From UHGV virus genome UHGV-0027971: a DNA stretch of 43,269 bases; one strand, 5' to 3'. The stretch comes from a virus. The position numbers were made by a program, and so were the translations under genes. A model generated the notes under the pieces. That model was not told where the DNA came from and made no database searches. It saw only the letters and a list, made by a program, of their open reading frames with translations. Position 1 is the first letter of the stretch, and each line of letters begins with the position of its first letter. This document shows, piece by piece, positions 7,706-16,484 of this stretch.

Positions 7706-7721
7706 GGCCGCAAGAGCGGCC
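7706..7721. terminator. hairpin terminator between convergent genes
   Basis: GGCCGC-aaga-GCGGCC followed by a T-rich tract; between the 7441..7698 (+) and 7721..8449 (-) 3' ends. Confidence 0.55.
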
Positions 7722-8449
7722 TATCGTTTCGCTTTGTGCTCATCCCAGCACGTTTTGCACCATGCCATTAAACCATCCGCATTTTGATTATTAGGGTAAA
7801 AGCTGGTTCGTTTTCTGCGGACATTACAAATTGGGCACCACTTCATATGGCGTGTATTCTTTGGGCCATCGAGACACCTTGCACACCACTTAGTCAATCC
7901 ATCTGGATTTTTTGACGATTTCCTGAATTTTTCATATGGAAGGTTTATTCTGCATCGCAAGCACTGCTTGCTACCACTTGAAACTCTGTTAGCTGATTCT
8001 TCTTTTGGCGGCGATACAGAAGGTATTCTTGCTGGCTCTGATACTGCCTGAGGTGCTTTTTTAGATGACTGAGACGATGTGTCATCACCAGGGAATCTTC
8101 CATGATATGCCGGACGCGTTGACACTCCAGGTGGAAGCTCTGCTGTAAATGGCTTTGGCTGAATCAGTTGCCTCTCTTTTGCTAACTCCTGCTGTTTATA
8201 ATATGTCTGGATTACCGCACTATCATAAGCAGGAGGTGCGGAAATATTAGGCGCATTACCTCCAGTTTTTTGAAACTGAGTAGAGGTGTGTTCTATCACC
8301 TGTGTACGATTAATCGTTATCTCCCCATCTTCGGTCTTTATCGTTTTGTTATGATTTACGACCGTACGATCAGAGATCTTAGTCTTGTTCTGGTTGATAA
8401 CGTAAATAATCACCGCAACCACACCAACAACTATCCAGAAAACTTCCAT
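7721..8449 (-). CDS. hypothetical membrane-anchored protein with two C-terminal zinc-ribbon-like motifs
   Basis: 242 aa; N-terminal hydrophobic helix, low-complexity S/P-rich linker, then CLRC..(x20)..WCARC and CPIC..(x20)..WCKTC. Confidence 0.5.
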   Translation of the reverse strand: MEVFWIVVGVVAVIIYVINQNKTKISDRTVVNHNKTIKTEDGEITINRTQVIEHTSTQFQKTGGNAPNISAPPAYDSAVIQTYYKQQELAKERQLIQPKPFTAELPPGVSTRPAYHGRFPGDDTSSQSSKKAPQAVSEPARIPSVSPPKEESANRVSSGSKQCLRCRINLPYEKFRKSSKNPDGLTKWCARCLDGPKNTRHMKWCPICNVRRKRTSFYPNNQNADGLMAWCKTCWDEHKAKR

Positions 8450-8604
8450 TGCTTTTCCTCACAATAACATTACCTTAAAGGTAATATCTTGCTTTCAGGT
8501 GATCAAGCATTAAACTCCATCAACCAAATACGGTTGATTTTGATATTTATTCTCGCTTATCATTACCTTTGCGGTAAATTTACATCGCACTCCTCTTGTG
8601 CCAT

Positions 8605-8845: not shown

Positions 8846-9352
8846 ATGCCAGGCCAAAAAATCTCAAACGACGATCTGTATTGGTTAATTTCTAATTCTC
8901 CACTCCTTCTTATGCTAAGGCAAGAAAGTGCACCACTGGTCAGTGAATTGATTAGCTGTAGAAATAGAATGTGGGATGAAGGGGCAGATTTAGATACCAA
9001 TTTGTTTGATCATCTTATGCAACTAGCAGTCGATAACAAGGCAAAACTACGCTCTGAATACAACGCTTATCCAGAAATAGCAAAATACCTTAACGCTGAA
9101 ATACTTGGTGGACCAGGTCAACCAGACCTAAAAACAAAAGATGGTTACCCTGTTGAGGTGAAGGTAGATACTTTTTCTCCTTCAGCATTAAAACAATTAT
9201 TAAGGTATATGGATGCTTCTGGCGCAGATTTTGGTTTTGCTTGTGCAAAAACTCTTTCTGTAAAACTCCCTGAAAACATAAAGTTCATCCAGTTAGATTA
9301 TAAAGATAATTGCTATTTCGTCGTGAAAGATGGAGGCAATGAAAATGCGTAA
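8846..9352 (+). CDS. hypothetical protein (168 aa), possible PD-(D/E)xK-like motif
   Basis: ORF with RBS GAGG; sequence KDGYPVEVKVD resembles a D..E.K nuclease core but this is a weak by-eye guess; AT-rich. Confidence 0.5.
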   Translation: MPGQKISNDDLYWLISNSPLLLMLRQESAPLVSELISCRNRMWDEGADLDTNLFDHLMQLAVDNKAKLRSEYNAYPEIAKYLNAEILGGPGQPDLKTKDGYPVEVKVDTFSPSALKQLLRYMDASGADFGFACAKTLSVKLPENIKFIQLDYKDNCYFVVKDGGNENA

Positions 9353-10064
9353 TATAGCTATTGATAAGTTGCCGATAACAACTCATTGCAACATCCCTGT
9401 AATGACTACAGAAATGCTTGCTGATTTGTATGACACAGAACCCAAACTGATTCGTCAAAACTATCAACGAAATGCAGATCGATTCATTGAGGGAAAACAT
9501 TGTTTCAAGCTGATAGGCGAAGAATTACGAGCATTTAAGAACGAGTCCTCTCAAAGAGGTTTGCTTAATATTGCACCAAAAGTAAGTCATCTTTTCTTAT
9601 GGACCGCTCGCGGTGCAGCACGACATGCGAAAATTCTTGAGACTGAAAAAGCGTGGGAGGTCTTCGAAAAACTGGAAGATTGCTACTTCGACAGAAAACC
9701 CGCAAATGTCAGTGGAGATGTTCGTCTCTCAGGTGGAGCTGATTTATCAAAGGCCACTCAGGTAATTGAAAAATTCATGCCCGCCATTATGGAGGCGATC
9801 AAGCTGGAAGACAAAAAAGAATACAGCGCCCCACTGAAGCCCGGCTACCGCAGCCTGATTCACTCGCCGTCGGGTGTTCTCGGCCTGACGGAGCACTCAC
9901 TGCTGATGAATCTGCTGAATCAGTTGCAGGAAGACGGGCACGACGTATCGGGCGCGGCGGCGGAACTGACCACCATGTTCTGCTACATCGTCGGTGTGAG
10001 TAAATGCCTGCGTGATATCCAGACGCACGCGGAGTACATCAACGACAAGGCAGGGTTCTTCTGA
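9345..10064 (+). CDS. antirepressor-like protein (ORF6N-type N-terminal domain + shared C-terminal module)
   Basis: Start taken at ATG 9345, 8 nt after GGAGG (track start 9330); C-terminal ~95 aa near-identical to those of 11074..12012 and 41064..41720. Confidence 0.7.
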   Translation: MRNIAIDKLPITTHCNIPVMTTEMLADLYDTEPKLIRQNYQRNADRFIEGKHCFKLIGEELRAFKNESSQRGLLNIAPKVSHLFLWTARGAARHAKILETEKAWEVFEKLEDCYFDRKPANVSGDVRLSGGADLSKATQVIEKFMPAIMEAIKLEDKKEYSAPLKPGYRSLIHSPSGVLGLTEHSLLMNLLNQLQEDGHDVSGAAAELTTMFCYIVGVSKCLRDIQTHAEYINDKAGFF

Positions 10065-10184
10065 CAGAACGGCGGCACAGGGATGTGCAAAACGGAACTA
10101 TCGTGACATGTCACAGGCCGCTTTCGCGGCCTTGTTTTTAACGAATGCCACCGCCGCCTGGGCGGGAATCCGCAGACACAAAAA

Positions 10185-10208: not shown

Positions 10209-10844
10209 CTATTTTATTGGCAGCTTATGCTTTGAAATTATGGCCAATCTGTTTTGGAAGTTTTCCGCATCACCCCACAACCAGGTTTCACCTTTCTCAA
10301 GTTCTTCCTCGTTATTCATCTCTATAAGTTCGCATGTCATCATGTCGTAACCATAGAGATGGAGGCCAAGTTCCAGTGCGTCATACATGCGAGCCTGCCA
10401 GAACGACATGCCTTCATGAGTCTGGTTGCGATCAGACACGATGATATCGTACCGTTCCAAGAGGTAGTTCATGAAGATGATGCCAGCGAAATCATGAAGC
10501 ACAGCACGATGCTTAGGCTTCTGGGTTCTCCATACCAATATCTGCGTGACAGGACGGCAGTTAAGATAGCTGTCAGGCTGGATAATGACACGATTGTAAT
10601 ACACTACCTCTTCGGTGAGGTCATTTATCAATGACAGTTCAAAGTGCGCCTGTGGAATCTCGCCTTTCTTACGATCGTCTACACGGACAACGCGGTATCC
10701 AGGAGCCAGAGAAACGCCTTTGACATCAGATGTGACATCGTTGCCGTTCACTAACTCTGAATACAGAGCGCGGTTGTCTGGAGTTTCGTTCAGATGAGCG
10801 AAAACCTCAGTTACCTTTGCCGGATTCAGCAGTTGTTGTGGCAT
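10209..10844 (-). CDS. hypothetical protein (211 aa), accessory gene
   Basis: Clean ORF with its own terminator and two upstream TTACC-N5-GGTAA-type sites (10886..10900, 10986..11000); no family recognised. Confidence 0.5.
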   Translation of the reverse strand: MPQQLLNPAKVTEVFAHLNETPDNRALYSELVNGNDVTSDVKGVSLAPGYRVVRVDDRKKGEIPQAHFELSLINDLTEEVVYYNRVIIQPDSYLNCRPVTQILVWRTQKPKHRAVLHDFAGIIFMNYLLERYDIIVSDRNQTHEGMSFWQARMYDALELGLHLYGYDMMTCELIEMNNEEELEKGETWLWGDAENFQNRLAIISKHKLPIK

Positions 10845-11073
10845 ACATCACCTCATAATATATAGATGCTTCTTTAAGCGGGATTTACCATTAGGGTAAA
10901 TGAACTATCCGAATGTTAAACGCCTTCGTACTCGTCAAATTTTCTCATGTGGGCTCCTCCTGTATCGGTGCCTAATCGCTATGGATCACCCGTGAGGTAA
11001 TAGTACGCTATTCACCCCCAGTCTGCAATCTGTACAGAATTATTTAAAGGCACATCCCTGTGCCGCCGTTCTG

Positions 11074-12012
11074 TCAGAAGAATCCTGCCTTGTCGTTGAT
11101 GTACTCCGCGTGGGTCTGGATATCACGCAGGCATTTGCTCACACCAACGATGTAGCAGAACATGGTGGTCAGCTCCGCCGCCGCGCCCGATACATCGTGC
11201 CCGTCTTCCTGCAACTGGTTCAGCAAATTCATCAGCAGTGAGTTCTCCGTCAGGCCGAGAACACCAGACGGCGAGTGAATCAGGCTGCGGTAGCCGGGCT
11301 TCAGCGGATAACCATAACATTTTGTCTGTGTTTTAATTGCCTCACGAAGCGCATCTAACATCTTGACTGCCACTTCATCATTCTCTGATGCAGATCCAGC
11401 AGGGAGATACTCCCCTTCAAGCGGAACCCGAGCAACAAGAGACAACGCTTCGGCGAATTGATCTTCATCAATTTCTTTGTACGAACAGCCAAAATGAGAT
11501 TTCAGTGACGACCACATGGTGATCATCGCCTTAGCCTGTTTTTCTTTTGGCAGAGACTGACCGCGACTCATGACGAGTTGTTTAATGGCTTCCTGCTGTT
11601 CAGTGGTGATTTTACCCGGCAACGCCTTTTTAGCTTTGCGTGGGTTAACTACATGGCCTTTAGTCCAGTAATCGTAGAGCACATCGTCACACTCTTCCTG
11701 ATACTGGATTACCTTGTCGCGGATTTCAGGGCGTACTTTGTTTGGACTGATGCTGTTCAACCAAGCTGCCAATTTTCGTAAAGCCATACAAATCATGGCT
11801 TGCACCCCACCGGCAGAAGGTATGGTGATTTCCACCATACCCTTCGAGAAGCGTTGAGAAATCTTCTTATGTTGAGATTTCCAGTCTAGCCCCATTCCCT
11901 CAACGATAGGTTTCATTGGGGTATACGGTTCACCGTTGTGATTGACAACATAAAGCTCTGCGCCGTGGAATGGCACGTTGATAGTAGATACCGCTGTTGC
12001 TATACTCGTCAT
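11074..12012 (-). CDS. ant: antirepressor (AntA-type N-terminal domain + shared C-terminal module)
   Basis: 312 aa; N-terminal region resembles AntA/P22 Ant-type domains; directly downstream of the arc-like gene as in P22 immI. Confidence 0.8.
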   Translation of the reverse strand: MTSIATAVSTINVPFHGAELYVVNHNGEPYTPMKPIVEGMGLDWKSQHKKISQRFSKGMVEITIPSAGGVQAMICMALRKLAAWLNSISPNKVRPEIRDKVIQYQEECDDVLYDYWTKGHVVNPRKAKKALPGKITTEQQEAIKQLVMSRGQSLPKEKQAKAMITMWSSLKSHFGCSYKEIDEDQFAEALSLVARVPLEGEYLPAGSASENDEVAVKMLDALREAIKTQTKCYGYPLKPGYRSLIHSPSGVLGLTENSLLMNLLNQLQEDGHDVSGAAAELTTMFCYIVGVSKCLRDIQTHAEYINDKAGFF

Positions 12013-12087
12013 GTCGTTAATTCCTATACGTAGTTTTACGATACTGAAGCCCTGACGGTCTGGCCACCGTTGGGCTTCGCTGTTTTA
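12013..12087 (+). ncRNA. candidate sar-like antisense RNA opposite the ant ribosome-binding region
   Basis: Plus-strand promoter inside the ant 5' end (-35 TTGATA 11978..11983, 17-bp spacer, -10 TATACT 12001..12006) and plus-strand terminator in the arc-ant gap (GAAGCCC..ACGGT-ctggcc-ACCGT..GGGCTTC + GCTGTTTTA, 12046..12087); predicted ~75 nt. Confidence 0.45.
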
Positions 12088-12252
12088 TGCCACGCTATTC
12101 TTCTCACCAGTGAGTCCATACACTTTCCTCAGCTGATAGATAATCTCTGTATTGAACTTTCGGCATTCTTTTTCGCCATTTCTTTCAATAGCTAACTTCA
12201 CATCGTCCGGAAAACGAACTCGTCGTTGACACATCTCTTTTGCTTTTTGCAT
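12085..12252 (-). CDS. arc: Arc-like ribbon-helix-helix repressor
   Basis: 55 aa from ATG 12252 with strong RBS AAGGAG (track start 12288 is a forced TTG); size and beta-strand region (RRVRFPDDVKLAIERNGE) fit P22 Arc. Confidence 0.7.
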   Translation of the reverse strand: MQKAKEMCQRRVRFPDDVKLAIERNGEKECRKFNTEIIYQLRKVYGLTGEKNSVA

Positions 12253-12281: not shown

Positions 12282-12372
12282 AAAACAATTGTCACACCGT
12301 GCGTCATTGATGTCAAGCACACGGTGAGGCATACTTCAATCATTGCAAGTAACTCAATATTTGGTGAAGAAC

Positions 12373-12804
12373 ATGAGCAGAGAAGATCCACAACTAAGGA
12401 TCAGACTTCCCGTTGAAGTAAAAGAAAAAATAGAAATTTCTGCAAAAGCCAATAAGCGATCAATGAACGCTGAAATAGTACAACGTCTTGACACCAGCTT
12501 TCTGAAAGATATTCATGAAGATGACGTAATTTCTGCTTATGAAGCAAAAATTATTGCAAACAATGCACGGCATGAAATATCAAATATTATTTTCAAAAGA
12601 ACCTTTAATGAAATTAATAAGAAAATAACACTTGGACATACAAGTTTTTATATAAACCTTAATGACCTTGAACTGGAATCACTTGCAGATAATGATTACC
12701 AGATCATCTTTGAAAAAACATTTAATAAGCTCAATGAACTAGGTTACATCATCTGTGAAAACTCATGGGATGCAGATGGTTTTGGAATTGAAATACCTGA
12801 ATAG
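12373..12804 (+). CDS. mnt: Mnt-like ribbon-helix-helix repressor with extended C-terminal region
   Basis: N-terminus MSREDPQLRIRLPVEVKEKIEISAKANKRSMNAEIVQRL matches my recollection of P22 Mnt (MARDDPHFNFRMPMEVREKLKFRAEANGRSMNSELLQIV); divergent from arc-ant; start taken at ATG 12373. Confidence 0.75.
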   Translation: MSREDPQLRIRLPVEVKEKIEISAKANKRSMNAEIVQRLDTSFLKDIHEDDVISAYEAKIIANNARHEISNIIFKRTFNEINKKITLGHTSFYINLNDLELESLADNDYQIIFEKTFNKLNELGYIICENSWDADGFGIEIPE

Positions 12805-12846
12805 GAAGAACAAAAGGCGTGTACATATTACACGTCTTTAATACAA

Positions 12847-13458
12847 TTGAAAAACGCCACATTACTGATGTATGTTACAACAAGGAGCGATATTTTGAAA
12901 ACCATATCTATATTAAAGGTTGCATTAGGCGTCGCTATTATTTTGACTCTCTCAATATTGTTTTATTTTTACCACAAAAAAAATGCTATTGCTCTTGATG
13001 GTCACGCGGCAAACTCATTTTTCTCAGAGTACATAGTGCCGCTATCAGGAAGCGGTATAACAAATAAATATACTGACTATGACATCAAATATGGAATTGA
13101 TGATGGGGAGACTATTGTATTACATGTAATCATTAAAAACCTAATGACAGTAAATAAAAATACAGACTTCAACGATAAAAATACAATACATCACAACAAC
13201 AGCAAAACATTAATTTCTTATAGTAGCAACATCTATACGGATAAATACCTAAAATACATCTCAGAAGATACAATAAAAGCAACCAGCGAAAAGTTAAAAA
13301 ACATATATTGTGCATCCGGCAGTTTTCACAAATTATCGCCGCAGGAGCGTTTATTCTACGAAGCAAGAAAACAACGTAAGTCAATAATATTACATTATTA
13401 TGCTGATTCAGGGGAGTCACTCATATTTAATATTGGGGTTTCCCCTGAATCATGCTAA
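12847..13458 (+). CDS. hypothetical membrane-anchored protein (203 aa), AT-rich accessory gene
   Basis: N-terminal hydrophobic helix (ILKVALGVAIILTLSILFYFY), N/K/Y-rich body; position next to mnt corresponds to sieA in P22-like maps (positional analogy only). Confidence 0.45.
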   Translation: MKNATLLMYVTTRSDILKTISILKVALGVAIILTLSILFYFYHKKNAIALDGHAANSFFSEYIVPLSGSGITNKYTDYDIKYGIDDGETIVLHVIIKNLMTVNKNTDFNDKNTIHHNNSKTLISYSSNIYTDKYLKYISEDTIKATSEKLKNIYCASGSFHKLSPQERLFYEARKQRKSIILHYYADSGESLIFNIGVSPESC

Positions 13459-13469
13459 AGGCGTTTAAC

Positions 13470-16400
13470 TCACCGCATCACCGGATCCACCTGGTTTATT
13501 AGTGGCGCAATCCAGAACAGGTTATTGCCTGGTATCAGAGTTCGGACATTATGCGCAATACGATCACCGGCATCACCATTCAACACTCCTGCGGTCACAT
13601 CAATGATGCTATCCGCAAGACCAAATGACGGTCCGAATAGAGATCCTACGAATCCACGACTGGCATACCTAGACTGTGTGCCAGTGCCAAATAAAGCCCC
13701 CAGCCCAACAGCACCACCAGTAGCCTTTTCAGCCATGTTGTTATATTCCATCAATGGCCCAAGAATACCGGATCTATCTATACCCTCAAGCACCAGCTTC
13801 TCTGGTGACCAGTCAACATTTTTCCCTTTCGATGCTTCTTTTAGCGCATAGACCAGTGAGCCAAGAGCAATCTGAAATGCAGTGCCATAATAAAATTGCG
13901 CAGTTCCCTCCTGTAACCCACCAAGTAGCGCACGGTTGTATGAAGCCGTTGTGAATGATTTAAACTGAAATATCGTTCGCCCCATTGGAGTACTCGCCCA
14001 TAAAGGTGTGTCACCAATACCGGGGGTGATGATAGTGTTATTAACGTCTTTCAGAACCGCTGACTGGAATACTCCGGCAACGTACTGATCGTCCCATTTA
14101 TCAAAGTTACCAATGTGCCATCCATCAATTACCTCACCATGTTTCTCGAACTCACTGCGAATACGCGCAGCCATATTGTCGTTGATACCGAGTTTTGCCA
14201 TGCGACGTGCAGAAAACGCACCGGACAAAATACCGTCTGACGTGAGCATTCCGTTCATGGATTTGTTTATGTCATTAAATCGATCCATGAGTGTCAGCTT
14301 GCCGAAGGCATCAGTAATTCGCTCCATTCCTGCTTCGACTGCTGTTGTCCTGGAAGAACTGTCAACAAGATCACCAATTGCACGAGAACGTGAATGTAGT
14401 ACAGCTTCCAATCCAATCCCCATCTTCAACATATCTTCTTTGCTGGCCTTAAATGCCGGTGATTGGGATATCTGAGAAGCATAGCCTTTCATGGTGTTAC
14501 GGAAACCATTAACCATAACCCCTCTGGCCAGATCTGGAATAGCTGATACTGTCATTCCACCGAGTTTGGTCGTGAAGTTCACATCCCGCAGAAAAGCGCC
14601 AGCACGAACAAAAAACGAAGACGGATCATCAGGCATCCCATATGTACCAACAAGACGATCGCGTAATGCTGTTATGTCTCTGAGATCATTTGCTCTTGAT
14701 TTTGAAAGTCTGGACTGTTCTTTCCGTAATTCCTTTTCGTACTTTCGCATTAATGAATCGAGTTTACCCTGAGGAACAACTTCACCATTGCTCTCATAAC
14801 GTGCTTTCAGATTTGCCACACTTTCGTCATATTTCGCCTTTATTTTTTCAGGCACTTCCCGTAACAGACTGTCATATTCGTCCTCAATTAATTGCAGACG
14901 CTCAGTCATAGTTCGTTTGCCAAATGTTCTCGTCAACTCAATTTCTGCTGCCGCTTCACGGATATGACGTTGCAGCACGTAATTCACATCACTTTCAAGA
15001 TAATCCCTGATAAGACTATCAGGAACATTTAATGTTCTTTCTTTCGTACTACCTGCGGCTTTTACAGAAAATACGCTGACAAAATCCTGTGGAACCTTAG
15101 CACCAGTAATTTTATTAATTACGATATCCGCTGCAATTTCAGCATCCTCAGGATCCAGTGTTTTATTTCCTCTCGACCACCAGTCAACCAAAATACGTCG
15201 AAATTTATCGCGTTCACTGATTATTTTTCCAACTTTATATATGCGTGGGAAATAGCTTGCCTGGCCTAATGCTTTCAGTTCTTCATCTGGCGGCAATAAA
15301 CCAAGCTTTTGCATTTCAACTTTCACCCGATTTAATACAGTTCGCATCGCCTGCGCCGTTTCCTGAACAACAGGATTAGCATGCACATCACCGCTTCGCA
15401 TAGCATTCCCAACCTGCTGACGAAATGAATCAAAACTCATGTCACCACCATCAGCTTTATACTTTGCGTATGCCTGTTTATTTCCGACAACAACAGCAGC
15501 TTCTTCACGCTGCCATCCACGTGTACGGGTTTCTACAGCTACCGGTGTTTCAATCCCCCTTTCATTTCCTTTAAGGGTGAAATTATTTTCGGCTAACTCC
15601 AGCGTTGTTTTTCGCACCGTCTTGGACGGAGACTCCATTAACCTTGTCAAAGGAGTAAGATAGCTCCCTGCTTTCCATGCAGCCTTTCCAACCCACCCAC
15701 CGGAAACAGGGGTTAAATCATCCAGAGTCGCTGTATCAATTTTCATAGCACCAACACTACCACCATCGGAAAGCGAAGCGGCAGCCCTGTCAGTCACTGA
15801 TGTAATGCTCATATTATCAAGAGCATCAGCAACCTCACGTGTGGCTGCAGCCCGGACGGATGGCGAAAGCGCAACACCAGCACTGGCAAACACGCCGCTC
15901 ATCATCGCACCCGCTGCAACGTGAGCGGCACTTTCACCCCATGAGCGTGTTATTTGCTGATTATTCAGTACAACCTCGCTTAATGCTGTACCGGCAGCAC
16001 CAATCGCAATCTGTGAGCCAATACGCGCCAGTGCCCCTCCTTGAGCACCGGGAATAAACATTGACGCAACAGTAACCGGATCCATTCCCGCAGCAATACT
16101 GGCAAGGGTTCCAACTACGCCAGCATCAGACAATAAACGTCTGTCTTCATTTTCATCATCTATCTGCTGCTTAATCCACGCCGTTTCCTCTGGCGATCGG
16201 GAATCTGCAAATTTCGCCCCCCAGTATTCATAACCGTGCAACTCATTTTTATCAGCATATGGGTTATAACCCTCGACCGGTTCAAACTGTCTGGCTGGGC
16301 GGAAAAAACCAGACAGAATATTGTTCTGTCGCATTGCAGCCCCCCATACGGAAGGCTCAGGTGGCAATGGCTCAGGATTAGCCCCTTCCGGAAGGGCAAC

Positions 16401-16484
16401 ATCAAACCCAGTTTGTTCCGGCAAAACATTACCTGACGGGATCAGTCCGTTATTAAGATCTTCAGCTTGTGCATAAACTGGCAT
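13470..16484 (-). CDS. internal virion/ejection protein (T7 gp16-position, 1004 aa)
   Basis: Very large ORF ending the virion operon after the gp14/gp15-like genes. Confidence 0.7.
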   Translation of the reverse strand: MPVYAQAEDLNNGLIPSGNVLPEQTGFDVALPEGANPEPLPPEPSVWGAAMRQNNILSGFFRPARQFEPVEGYNPYADKNELHGYEYWGAKFADSRSPEETAWIKQQIDDENEDRRLLSDAGVVGTLASIAAGMDPVTVASMFIPGAQGGALARIGSQIAIGAAGTALSEVVLNNQQITRSWGESAAHVAAGAMMSGVFASAGVALSPSVRAAATREVADALDNMSITSVTDRAAASLSDGGSVGAMKIDTATLDDLTPVSGGWVGKAAWKAGSYLTPLTRLMESPSKTVRKTTLELAENNFTLKGNERGIETPVAVETRTRGWQREEAAVVVGNKQAYAKYKADGGDMSFDSFRQQVGNAMRSGDVHANPVVQETAQAMRTVLNRVKVEMQKLGLLPPDEELKALGQASYFPRIYKVGKIISERDKFRRILVDWWSRGNKTLDPEDAEIAADIVINKITGAKVPQDFVSVFSVKAAGSTKERTLNVPDSLIRDYLESDVNYVLQRHIREAAAEIELTRTFGKRTMTERLQLIEDEYDSLLREVPEKIKAKYDESVANLKARYESNGEVVPQGKLDSLMRKYEKELRKEQSRLSKSRANDLRDITALRDRLVGTYGMPDDPSSFFVRAGAFLRDVNFTTKLGGMTVSAIPDLARGVMVNGFRNTMKGYASQISQSPAFKASKEDMLKMGIGLEAVLHSRSRAIGDLVDSSSRTTAVEAGMERITDAFGKLTLMDRFNDINKSMNGMLTSDGILSGAFSARRMAKLGINDNMAARIRSEFEKHGEVIDGWHIGNFDKWDDQYVAGVFQSAVLKDVNNTIITPGIGDTPLWASTPMGRTIFQFKSFTTASYNRALLGGLQEGTAQFYYGTAFQIALGSLVYALKEASKGKNVDWSPEKLVLEGIDRSGILGPLMEYNNMAEKATGGAVGLGALFGTGTQSRYASRGFVGSLFGPSFGLADSIIDVTAGVLNGDAGDRIAHNVRTLIPGNNLFWIAPLINQVDPVMR

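Follow-up and report, generated by a model that had tools for sequence, protein, structure and literature searches.

What is the AT-rich gene that separates the repressor gene mnt from the ejection genes in this phage sequence, and does its position betray a role in superinfection exclusion? The window, i.e., the whole stretch of 43,269 nucleotides analysed here (UHGV virus genome UHGV-0027971), had received a first-pass annotation in which this gene was described as a moron encoding a membrane protein, presumably acquired recently by horizontal transfer and occupying the place that sieA holds in P22-like maps. Much of this description stands, whereas the P22-like map and the recent origin do not.

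Prophage setting of the locus

Across the queried region 12300-13470, the window is ~99% identical to Escherichia phage TL-2011b, and this region is carried by 36 of 5,426 complete E. coli genomes. The window represents an E. coli prophage of the TL-2011b type, in which a T7-like virion is joined to a true immI region of the P22 type (ant, sar RNA, arc, and mnt). The antirepressor gene ant occupies positions 11074..12012 on the minus strand (Pfam P22_AR_N, E 2.5e-45). Between arc and ant lies the sar antisense RNA (12014..12081, +), recognised by Rfam model RF00262 with 45.2 bits for a gathering score of 43 (E 2e-7), while the arc homologue (12085..12252, -) encodes 55 aa and is supported by annotations and by 33% identity to P22 Arc (E 4e-5). 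The mnt homologue (12373..12804, +) encodes a 143-aa protein with an RHH domain and an extra C-terminal domain of ~57 aa (Pfam Arc, E 1.2e-14; PHROG 1388). It shares 32% identity with P22 Mnt over the full length of the latter (E 3e-14), and the gene under study does adjoin mnt, as had been claimed. Because the sar RNA is present between arc and ant, the cassette can be regarded as a complete P22-type immI region, apparently set into a phage whose virion module is T7-like. The mnt homologue is also longer than P22 Mnt (143 vs 83 aa), and its gene is AT-rich (GC 0.323) like the neighbour discussed below; in the GenBank record of TL-2011b, only a truncated version of 113 aa is annotated.

The virion module is built from a portal of the T7 type, a T7_gp14 homologue, a protein of 905 aa with an SLT domain, and a 1004-aa protein; its three ejectosome proteins measure 188, 905 and 1004 aa. 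The 1004-aa protein is the product of the last internal-virion (ejection) gene (13470..16484, -), which follows those of the T7_gp14 homologue and the SLT-domain protein and is assigned to PHROG 342 and 16310. It is convergent with the gene under study, with 11 bp between the two stop codons. With such a portal, gp14 homologue and SLT-bearing internal proteins, the virion is not P22-like, and the P22-like map proposed earlier fails in this part. The gene order, however, does correspond, and the position is indeed equivalent to that of sieA: P22 displays gene 16, sieA (convergent), orf59a, mnt, arc-sar-ant, and gene 9, and the window displays the last ejection gene, the 187-aa gene (convergent), mnt, and arc-sar-ant, with the tailspike gene further on.

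Other features of the vicinity may be mentioned. The C-terminal domains of an ORF6N-type protein (9330-10064, +) and of Ant (11074-12012, -) are identical, being encoded by the two arms of a 258-bp inverted repeat that is 96% complementary (9831-10088 and 11050-11307). The repeat flanks a gene of 211 aa at 10209-10844 and could serve inversion or module exchange. Several other exported or membrane accessory genes are found in the same inter-module region. The last 45 bp of the ejection gene (13476-13520) are preserved at 100% identity, as an unannotated intergenic relic, in ~36 further E. coli genomes, of which several are ST131. In L015, the ST131 locus inspected, the relic lies within another prophage, whose internal protein is of the DUF919 type; it could indicate the boundary of a module or a recombination junction.

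The gene, its composition and its family

Read from its first TTG, the open reading frame (12847-13458, +) is intact and encodes 203 aa, as first reported. The TTG at 12895 is almost certainly the real start, because it is preceded by a perfect AAGGAG site (12882-12887) with a 7-nt spacer, is the start both in the GenBank annotation of TL-2011b gp39 and in the PGAP annotation of three E. coli genomes, yields a product matching PHROG 8033 end to end (187/187), and aligns with the N-termini of distant homologues. The coding sequence would hence be 12895..13458 (+), with a product of 187 aa that opens with MKTISILK and belongs to the TL-2011b gp39/PHROG 8033 family. The preceding 16 in-frame codons (12847..12894, +) are very probably untranslated and probably form a 5' leader with the ribosome-binding site, as homologues and annotations begin at the equivalent of 12895.

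The gene is real and clearly under purifying selection. None of the E. coli copies compared (five aligned copies and 18 E. coli-type IMG/VR loci) has a broken frame, with a pN/pS of 0.2-0.4 in most pairs, and of 0.79 in one near-identical pair. These values are two to three times higher than those of the neighbouring genes (~0.1). The product contains 23 I, 20 S, 18 K, 16 L, 14 Y and 13 N among its 187 residues, and its body, described earlier as N/K/Y-rich, is more fully I/S/K/Y/N-rich.

The AT-richness noticed at first sight is borne out by windowed GC content: the gene has a GC of 0.326 (z-score -3.2), compared with 0.478 for the window and 0.465-0.49 for the flanks (0.465 for the flanking virion gene), and only 1.3% of the 564-nt windows are as low. 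This deviation does not belong to the gene alone. The AT-rich island extends over ~12343-13458, the sole place in the window where GC windows fall below 0.36, and includes the mnt-like gene. The contrast with the flanking phage genes, which is expected of a moron, is found in the window and in every homologous locus.

The gene seems to form a transcription unit of its own. Upstream of it, after the mnt-like gene, an 11-bp hairpin (12813..12839, +; -13.1 kcal/mol, z -4.3) is a candidate, possibly leaky, mnt terminator; none of 200 shuffled sequences is as stable, and an A-to-G change in the variant copy L010 retains pairing as G-U. A consensus scan places a sigma-70-like promoter candidate, TGTACA-16-TACAAT, over this hairpin (12820..12847, +), in a region where promoter-like sites are no commoner than in shuffles; its -10 element reads TATAAT in the same variant copy, and transcription would be predicted to start near 12854. 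Homologous loci of Providencia, Proteus and metagenomic origin exhibit clearer promoter-like sites of the TTGACG-17-ATTAAT type, and the intergenic hairpins of these loci are common to the gene and the late operon. Within the window, no convincing terminator follows the 187-aa gene (z ~0).

The PHROG 8033 family is, by the searches performed, small and uncharacterised. An exhaustive phmmer search of 1.84 billion representative proteins returned only 17 matches, and a profile search of 5.8 billion clusters returned 11. The sequences originate from Escherichia, Providencia, Proteus and a few metagenomes, and a scan of representative genomes, bounded by the peptide pattern used, added a single locus, in Proteus cibi. 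Members are 150-195 aa long, each opening with a signal peptide or a signal-anchor, and their alignments reveal the motifs LxLSGxxAxFFxxY[IV]xP and DYxxFYGxDDGxxI, an invariant YC, and a C-terminal YYDxxGxSLxFxxGVSPxSC. Pfam, NCBIfam and PADLOC gave no meaningful match for the 187-aa protein, nor did Pfam for 11 family members; across Pfam, PHROGs, PADLOC and NCBIfam, no sequence similarity to a characterised exclusion protein was detected. A ThsB/TIR match (E 0.005, 15 bits) and matches to DUF7847 and DUF3836 fell far below threshold and were discarded. The protein accessions of the family are mentioned in no paper found in the literature.

The position of the family gene is strikingly constant. 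In all 30 loci compared (six assembly contexts and 24 IMG/VR contigs), it is convergent with the last ejection-protein ORF, of at least 937 aa, at a distance of -29 to +34 bp, and this linkage persists in loci devoid of mnt, arc and ant. In every locus, it falls short of the adjacent ejection gene in GC by 0.07-0.19 (0.28-0.42 vs 0.39-0.52). Furthermore, the window protein is only 27-30% identical to homologues at the same junction in Proteus, Providencia and metagenomic phages, while the adjacent ejection proteins are 42-50% identical. Because the junction is shared, the divergence exceeds that of the neighbour, and the GC deficit is the same everywhere, the gene is best regarded as an old, fast-evolving resident of the phage lineage and its AT-richness as a stable family trait. 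The recent horizontal acquisition suggested earlier from base composition is not supported by these data.

The slot itself is exchangeable between cassettes. At least 80% of the 3' segment queried from the adjacent ejection gene is present in 44 E. coli genomes, but the 187-aa gene in only 36 of the complete genomes; in BCE049 and MS 196-1, the slot is filled by the gene, also AT-rich, of an unrelated 175-aa protein with an N-terminal TM helix (WP_000451652), the breakpoint falling right at the stop codon of the ejection gene. The 187-aa gene is thus present in some phages and absent from close relatives. This polymorphism, the low GC and a candidate promoter of its own favour the moron reading of the first-pass annotation. 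Near-identical Providencia-type copies also adjoin different types of ejection protein (L003 vs L008).

A 77-bp module, ~90% identical between the window (8437-8513) and L013 (2884-2960), contains an upstream region, a ribosome-binding site, and the first four codons (MEVF). In the window it belongs to a gene at 7721-8449 (-), the 242-aa product of which combines an N-terminal TM helix with a Cys-rich C-terminus, and the module is reused upstream of the unrelated 175-aa cassette. The inter-module region of the Providencia and Proteus prophages is crowded with accessory genes directed to the envelope, and the gene divergent from the family member encodes another exported protein, of 175-180 aa and devoid of known domains (L003, 7352-7879, -; L009, 7339-7881, -).

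Predicted export and fold of the protein

The single N-terminal membrane helix foreseen by the first reading is recovered by hydropathy, with one hydrophobic segment at residues ~4-25 (12904..12969, +) reaching Kyte-Doolittle 19-mer values of 2.47; the AlphaFold model places a helix at residues 3-26. It may be a signal-anchor or a signal peptide, either uncleaved or cleavable. Several homologues, such as P0007 and P0011, possess classical Sec signal peptides with AXA-like cleavage sites. In the E. coli copy, the charges around the helix (K2 and K8 vs K28 and K29) do not fix the topology by themselves. Sequence inspection revealed no canonical lipobox in the window protein or its homologues. 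It is plausible that the protein is exported and tethered to the membrane, and we infer that it faces the periplasm in this copy.

The remainder of the protein, residues 31-187 (12985..13455, +), is predicted to form a periplasmic α/β domain. The AlphaFold model predicts with confidence the fold of the AspS/PA3611 pilotins: a five-stranded sheet and four helices, in the order α1-β1-β2-β3-α2-α3-β4-β5-α4, which reproduces the published AspS topology. Foldseek returns PA3611 and the AspS/EpsS pilotins as closest structural matches (compared with PDB 4FTF, 6I2V, 5ZDH and 3NPD), with E-values that are not significant by themselves, and a search of viral structures in BFVD gave no significant match. 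A short in-frame indel distinguishes the copies, the seven residues DFNDKNT (13144-13164) being missing from P0001; it falls in an N-rich insertion modelled with low confidence (residues 84-115) and confined to the E. coli-type subgroup of the family.

Two cysteines accord with this fold. Cys139 (codon 13309..13311, +), at the end of helix α2, is invariant in alignments A1 and A2, and Cys187 (13453..13455, +), the C-terminal residue, is nearly invariant in both and is its likely partner. In AspS and PA3611, a conserved disulfide (Cys74-Cys111 in AspS) joins the end of α2 to the C-terminal helix α4, and the two cysteines of the phage protein appear to stand at equivalent positions. As both are conserved in an exported protein, a periplasmic Cys139-Cys187 disulfide is probable.

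The likeness to AspS, EpsS, YghG and PA3611 would thus lie in fold order and periplasmic location, both predicted. In contrast, sequence and profile similarity to pilotins is undetectable, an hhalign comparison of alignment A1 with E. coli YghG yielding a probability of 0.2%. The phage protein, unlike pilotins, is phage-encoded, has no lipobox, contains a 30-residue insertion after β3, and would be anchored by a TM helix instead of a lipid. Because no relation is detectable at the sequence level, only a fold resemblance is claimed here, possibly reflecting remote homology, and not membership in the pilotin family. A sequence-profile match in the PDB to an iota-carbonic anhydrase (7c5x, E 2e-6) is judged spurious, because its score sums three weak repeat matches of ~12, 12 and 2 bits (the best two at E ~1) and because the aligned segment is helical in the model of the 187-aa protein and a strand in NTF2-like domains.

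Possible functions and known counterparts

Superinfection exclusion by the 187-aa protein is plausible by analogy. The reading that we tentatively favour, while still holding it to be doubtful, is that of a functional analogue of P22 SieA, not homologous to it, which would exclude superinfecting phages at the envelope from the periplasmic side. It is the most economical reading because SieA, an envelope protein encoded at the same slot, blocks the conduit made by the ejection proteins, as has been shown experimentally (Leavitt et al. 2024, PMC10883804). The gene would be a stand-alone accessory gene of the moron type in a TL-2011b-type temperate podophage. Oriented opposite to the late operon, it would probably be expressed in the lysogen, with a weak promoter of its own, read-through from mnt, or both as the source of transcripts. 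The protein would be exported by Sec, and either tethered to the inner membrane by the N-terminal helix or released into the periplasm, where it would display the disulfide-stabilised AspS/PA3611-type α/β domain. We infer that this domain binds a short helical partner, namely a segment of the incoming ejection proteins (T7 gp14/15/16-type) or a host partner that these require, and that binding would stop the trans-envelope DNA conduit from forming, with exclusion as the resulting phenotype.

The sieA-like slot, the linkage to ejection genes in 30/30 loci, the signs of a separate transcription unit, the export signals, the pair of cysteines, the agreement with AspS in fold order and cysteine placement, and the fast evolution under purifying selection all favour exclusion, as does the different protein with an N-terminal TM helix found in the same slot of sister prophages. 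A lead to the partner, though only a lead, is provided by P0022, the family member of L008 (2958-3752). It carries ~100 extra codons, comprising an in-frame, diverged copy of ejection-protein residues ~65-110 followed by a C-terminal TM helix; the fused segment is inverted relative to the ejection gene, and the fusion was observed on a single contig. On the other side, adjacency to the ejection genes may only mean that the end of the late operon is a permissive insertion site, which unrelated cassettes also use. Moreover, the known activity of the fold, secretin piloting, would point as readily to a host target.

A sharper version of the exclusion reading gives more weight to the fold and is unlikely as it stands. 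In T2SS pilotins, the AspS-type fold clamps a short helical segment of the partner protein. The phage family might represent a new one with a borrowed pilotin fold, genetically bound to the terminus of the T7-type ejectosome operon in temperate podophages and acting as a periplasmic clamp on a helix of an ejection protein, much as pilotins capture the secretin S-domain. The L008 fusion would in that case point to the ligand, in the manner of a Rosetta stone.

An unlikely explanation, too, is a lysogenic-conversion or fitness factor outside phage conflict, involved for instance in envelope stress, adhesion or host interaction, at a site that merely tolerates insertions. The unrelated cassette in the same slot, the exported and membrane accessory genes of the same inter-module region, and the lack of a defence-family match in PADLOC would fit such a role. 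However, the family is confined to phages and prophages of one virion type and always to one junction (30 loci, several genera), and its faster evolution suits conflict better than housekeeping.

The fold itself raises the distinctly unlikely case of a pilotin mimic acting on the host. The tethered AspS-like domain would have as its ligand the S-domain of a host secretin, e.g., GspD-beta of the T2SS that depends on YghG/AspS, or some other substrate of envelope assembly, and would alter secretion or surface structures, leading to lysogenic conversion or to indirect masking of receptors. PA3611 and AspS/EpsS are the best structural matches of the model, with matching topology and disulfide position, and E. 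coli does encode an AspS-type pilotin, YghG. The absence of a canonical lipobox from the family is shared with PA3611, for which Dunstan et al. suggested possible secretin binding in the periplasm. Against this, neither YghG nor any pilotin family of Pfam resembles the phage protein at the sequence level, the phage gene is strictly linked to phage ejection genes instead of secretion loci, and the T2SS-beta may be missing from many hosts of these prophages.

It is improbable that the protein acts as Spackle does, by blocking the SLT domain of the 905-aa internal virion protein of superinfecting relatives, which would then fail to cross the peptidoglycan. Precedent exists in T4 Sp, which brings about exclusion from the periplasm by inhibiting a tail lysozyme; the neighbouring ejectosome protein does harbor an SLT domain, and the 187-aa protein seems periplasm-directed and probably disulfide-bonded. 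Nevertheless, this is a sub-case of exclusion without specific support, and the structural matches of the model include no known lysozyme or transglycosylase inhibitors. A role in lysis, e.g., as a spanin, is rejected: the gene opposes the late operon, the spanins of TL-2011b are catalogued separately (Bcep176/epsilon15 spanin group), and lysis genes lie elsewhere in the Providencia and Proteus relatives.

Highly improbable, and largely refuted, is a recently imported or decaying, non-functional ORF whose AT-richness would be the mark of import, for although the GC contrast (0.326 vs 0.478) and the slot polymorphism among E. coli prophages could suggest it, homologues occupy the same junction in divergent phages with the same GC deficit and are more diverged than their neighbours, and the ORF is intact, with a pN/pS of 0.2-0.4 in most pairs and a confidently predicted fold.

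What appears new here is the combination of an AspS/PA3611-like predicted fold with strict linkage to T7-type ejectosome genes. Should exclusion prove true, phages with T7-type ejection proteins would have their first described exclusion factor acting at the envelope, and a pilotin fold would for the first time be seen to serve exclusion; under the clamp reading, the protein would represent a new structural class. It would also provide a genetic handle, through escape mutants and binding partners, on the assembly of the gp14/15/16-type conduit in the periplasm. Host-range prediction for phage therapy would be affected in those E. coli lineages (EHEC O103, ETEC, APEC and clinical isolates among them) that harbor TL-2011b-type prophages. 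If host secretins were targeted instead, a new kind of lysogenic conversion would emerge. Either way, a common inference is corrected, as low GC here denotes a long-resident, fast-evolving accessory gene and not a recent import.

Among known systems, P22 sieA is the closest counterpart by position. It occupies the same slot as the 187-aa gene, convergent with the last ejection gene on the mnt side of immI, is also AT-rich relative to its flanks (~0.34), and encodes, as predicted for the 187-aa gene, a small envelope protein. SieA spans the inner membrane several times and carries the motif FxRYPxEAxxFNK on its cytoplasmic side (Leavitt et al. 2024, PMC10883804), whereas the 187-aa protein has one N-terminal helix and a predicted periplasmic globular domain, and its sequence does not contain this motif. 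The best BLASTP alignment between the two, with SieA of type A as the direct comparison, has an E-value of 0.34 over 42 residues of TM-like sequence. Homology to SieA is ruled out by this sequence comparison, by the single-helix topology and by the missing motif. The ejection proteins differ as well, P22-type in the phage of SieA and T7-type here.

Other phages block DNA entry by means of small exported or membrane-anchored proteins, such as Sp and Imm of T4, Llp of T5, gp15 of HK97, and Ltp of TP-J34. The likeness of the 187-aa protein to these is functional only, as proposed here, and no homology was found. As for the gene, it resembles the lambdoid morons such as lambda bor and lom, a concept reportedly due to Juhala et al. 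2000, in forming an apparently independent unit between modules, with deviant composition and variable presence. Unlike a recent or sporadic insertion, however, the 187-aa family has held its junction through the deep divergence of its phage lineage.
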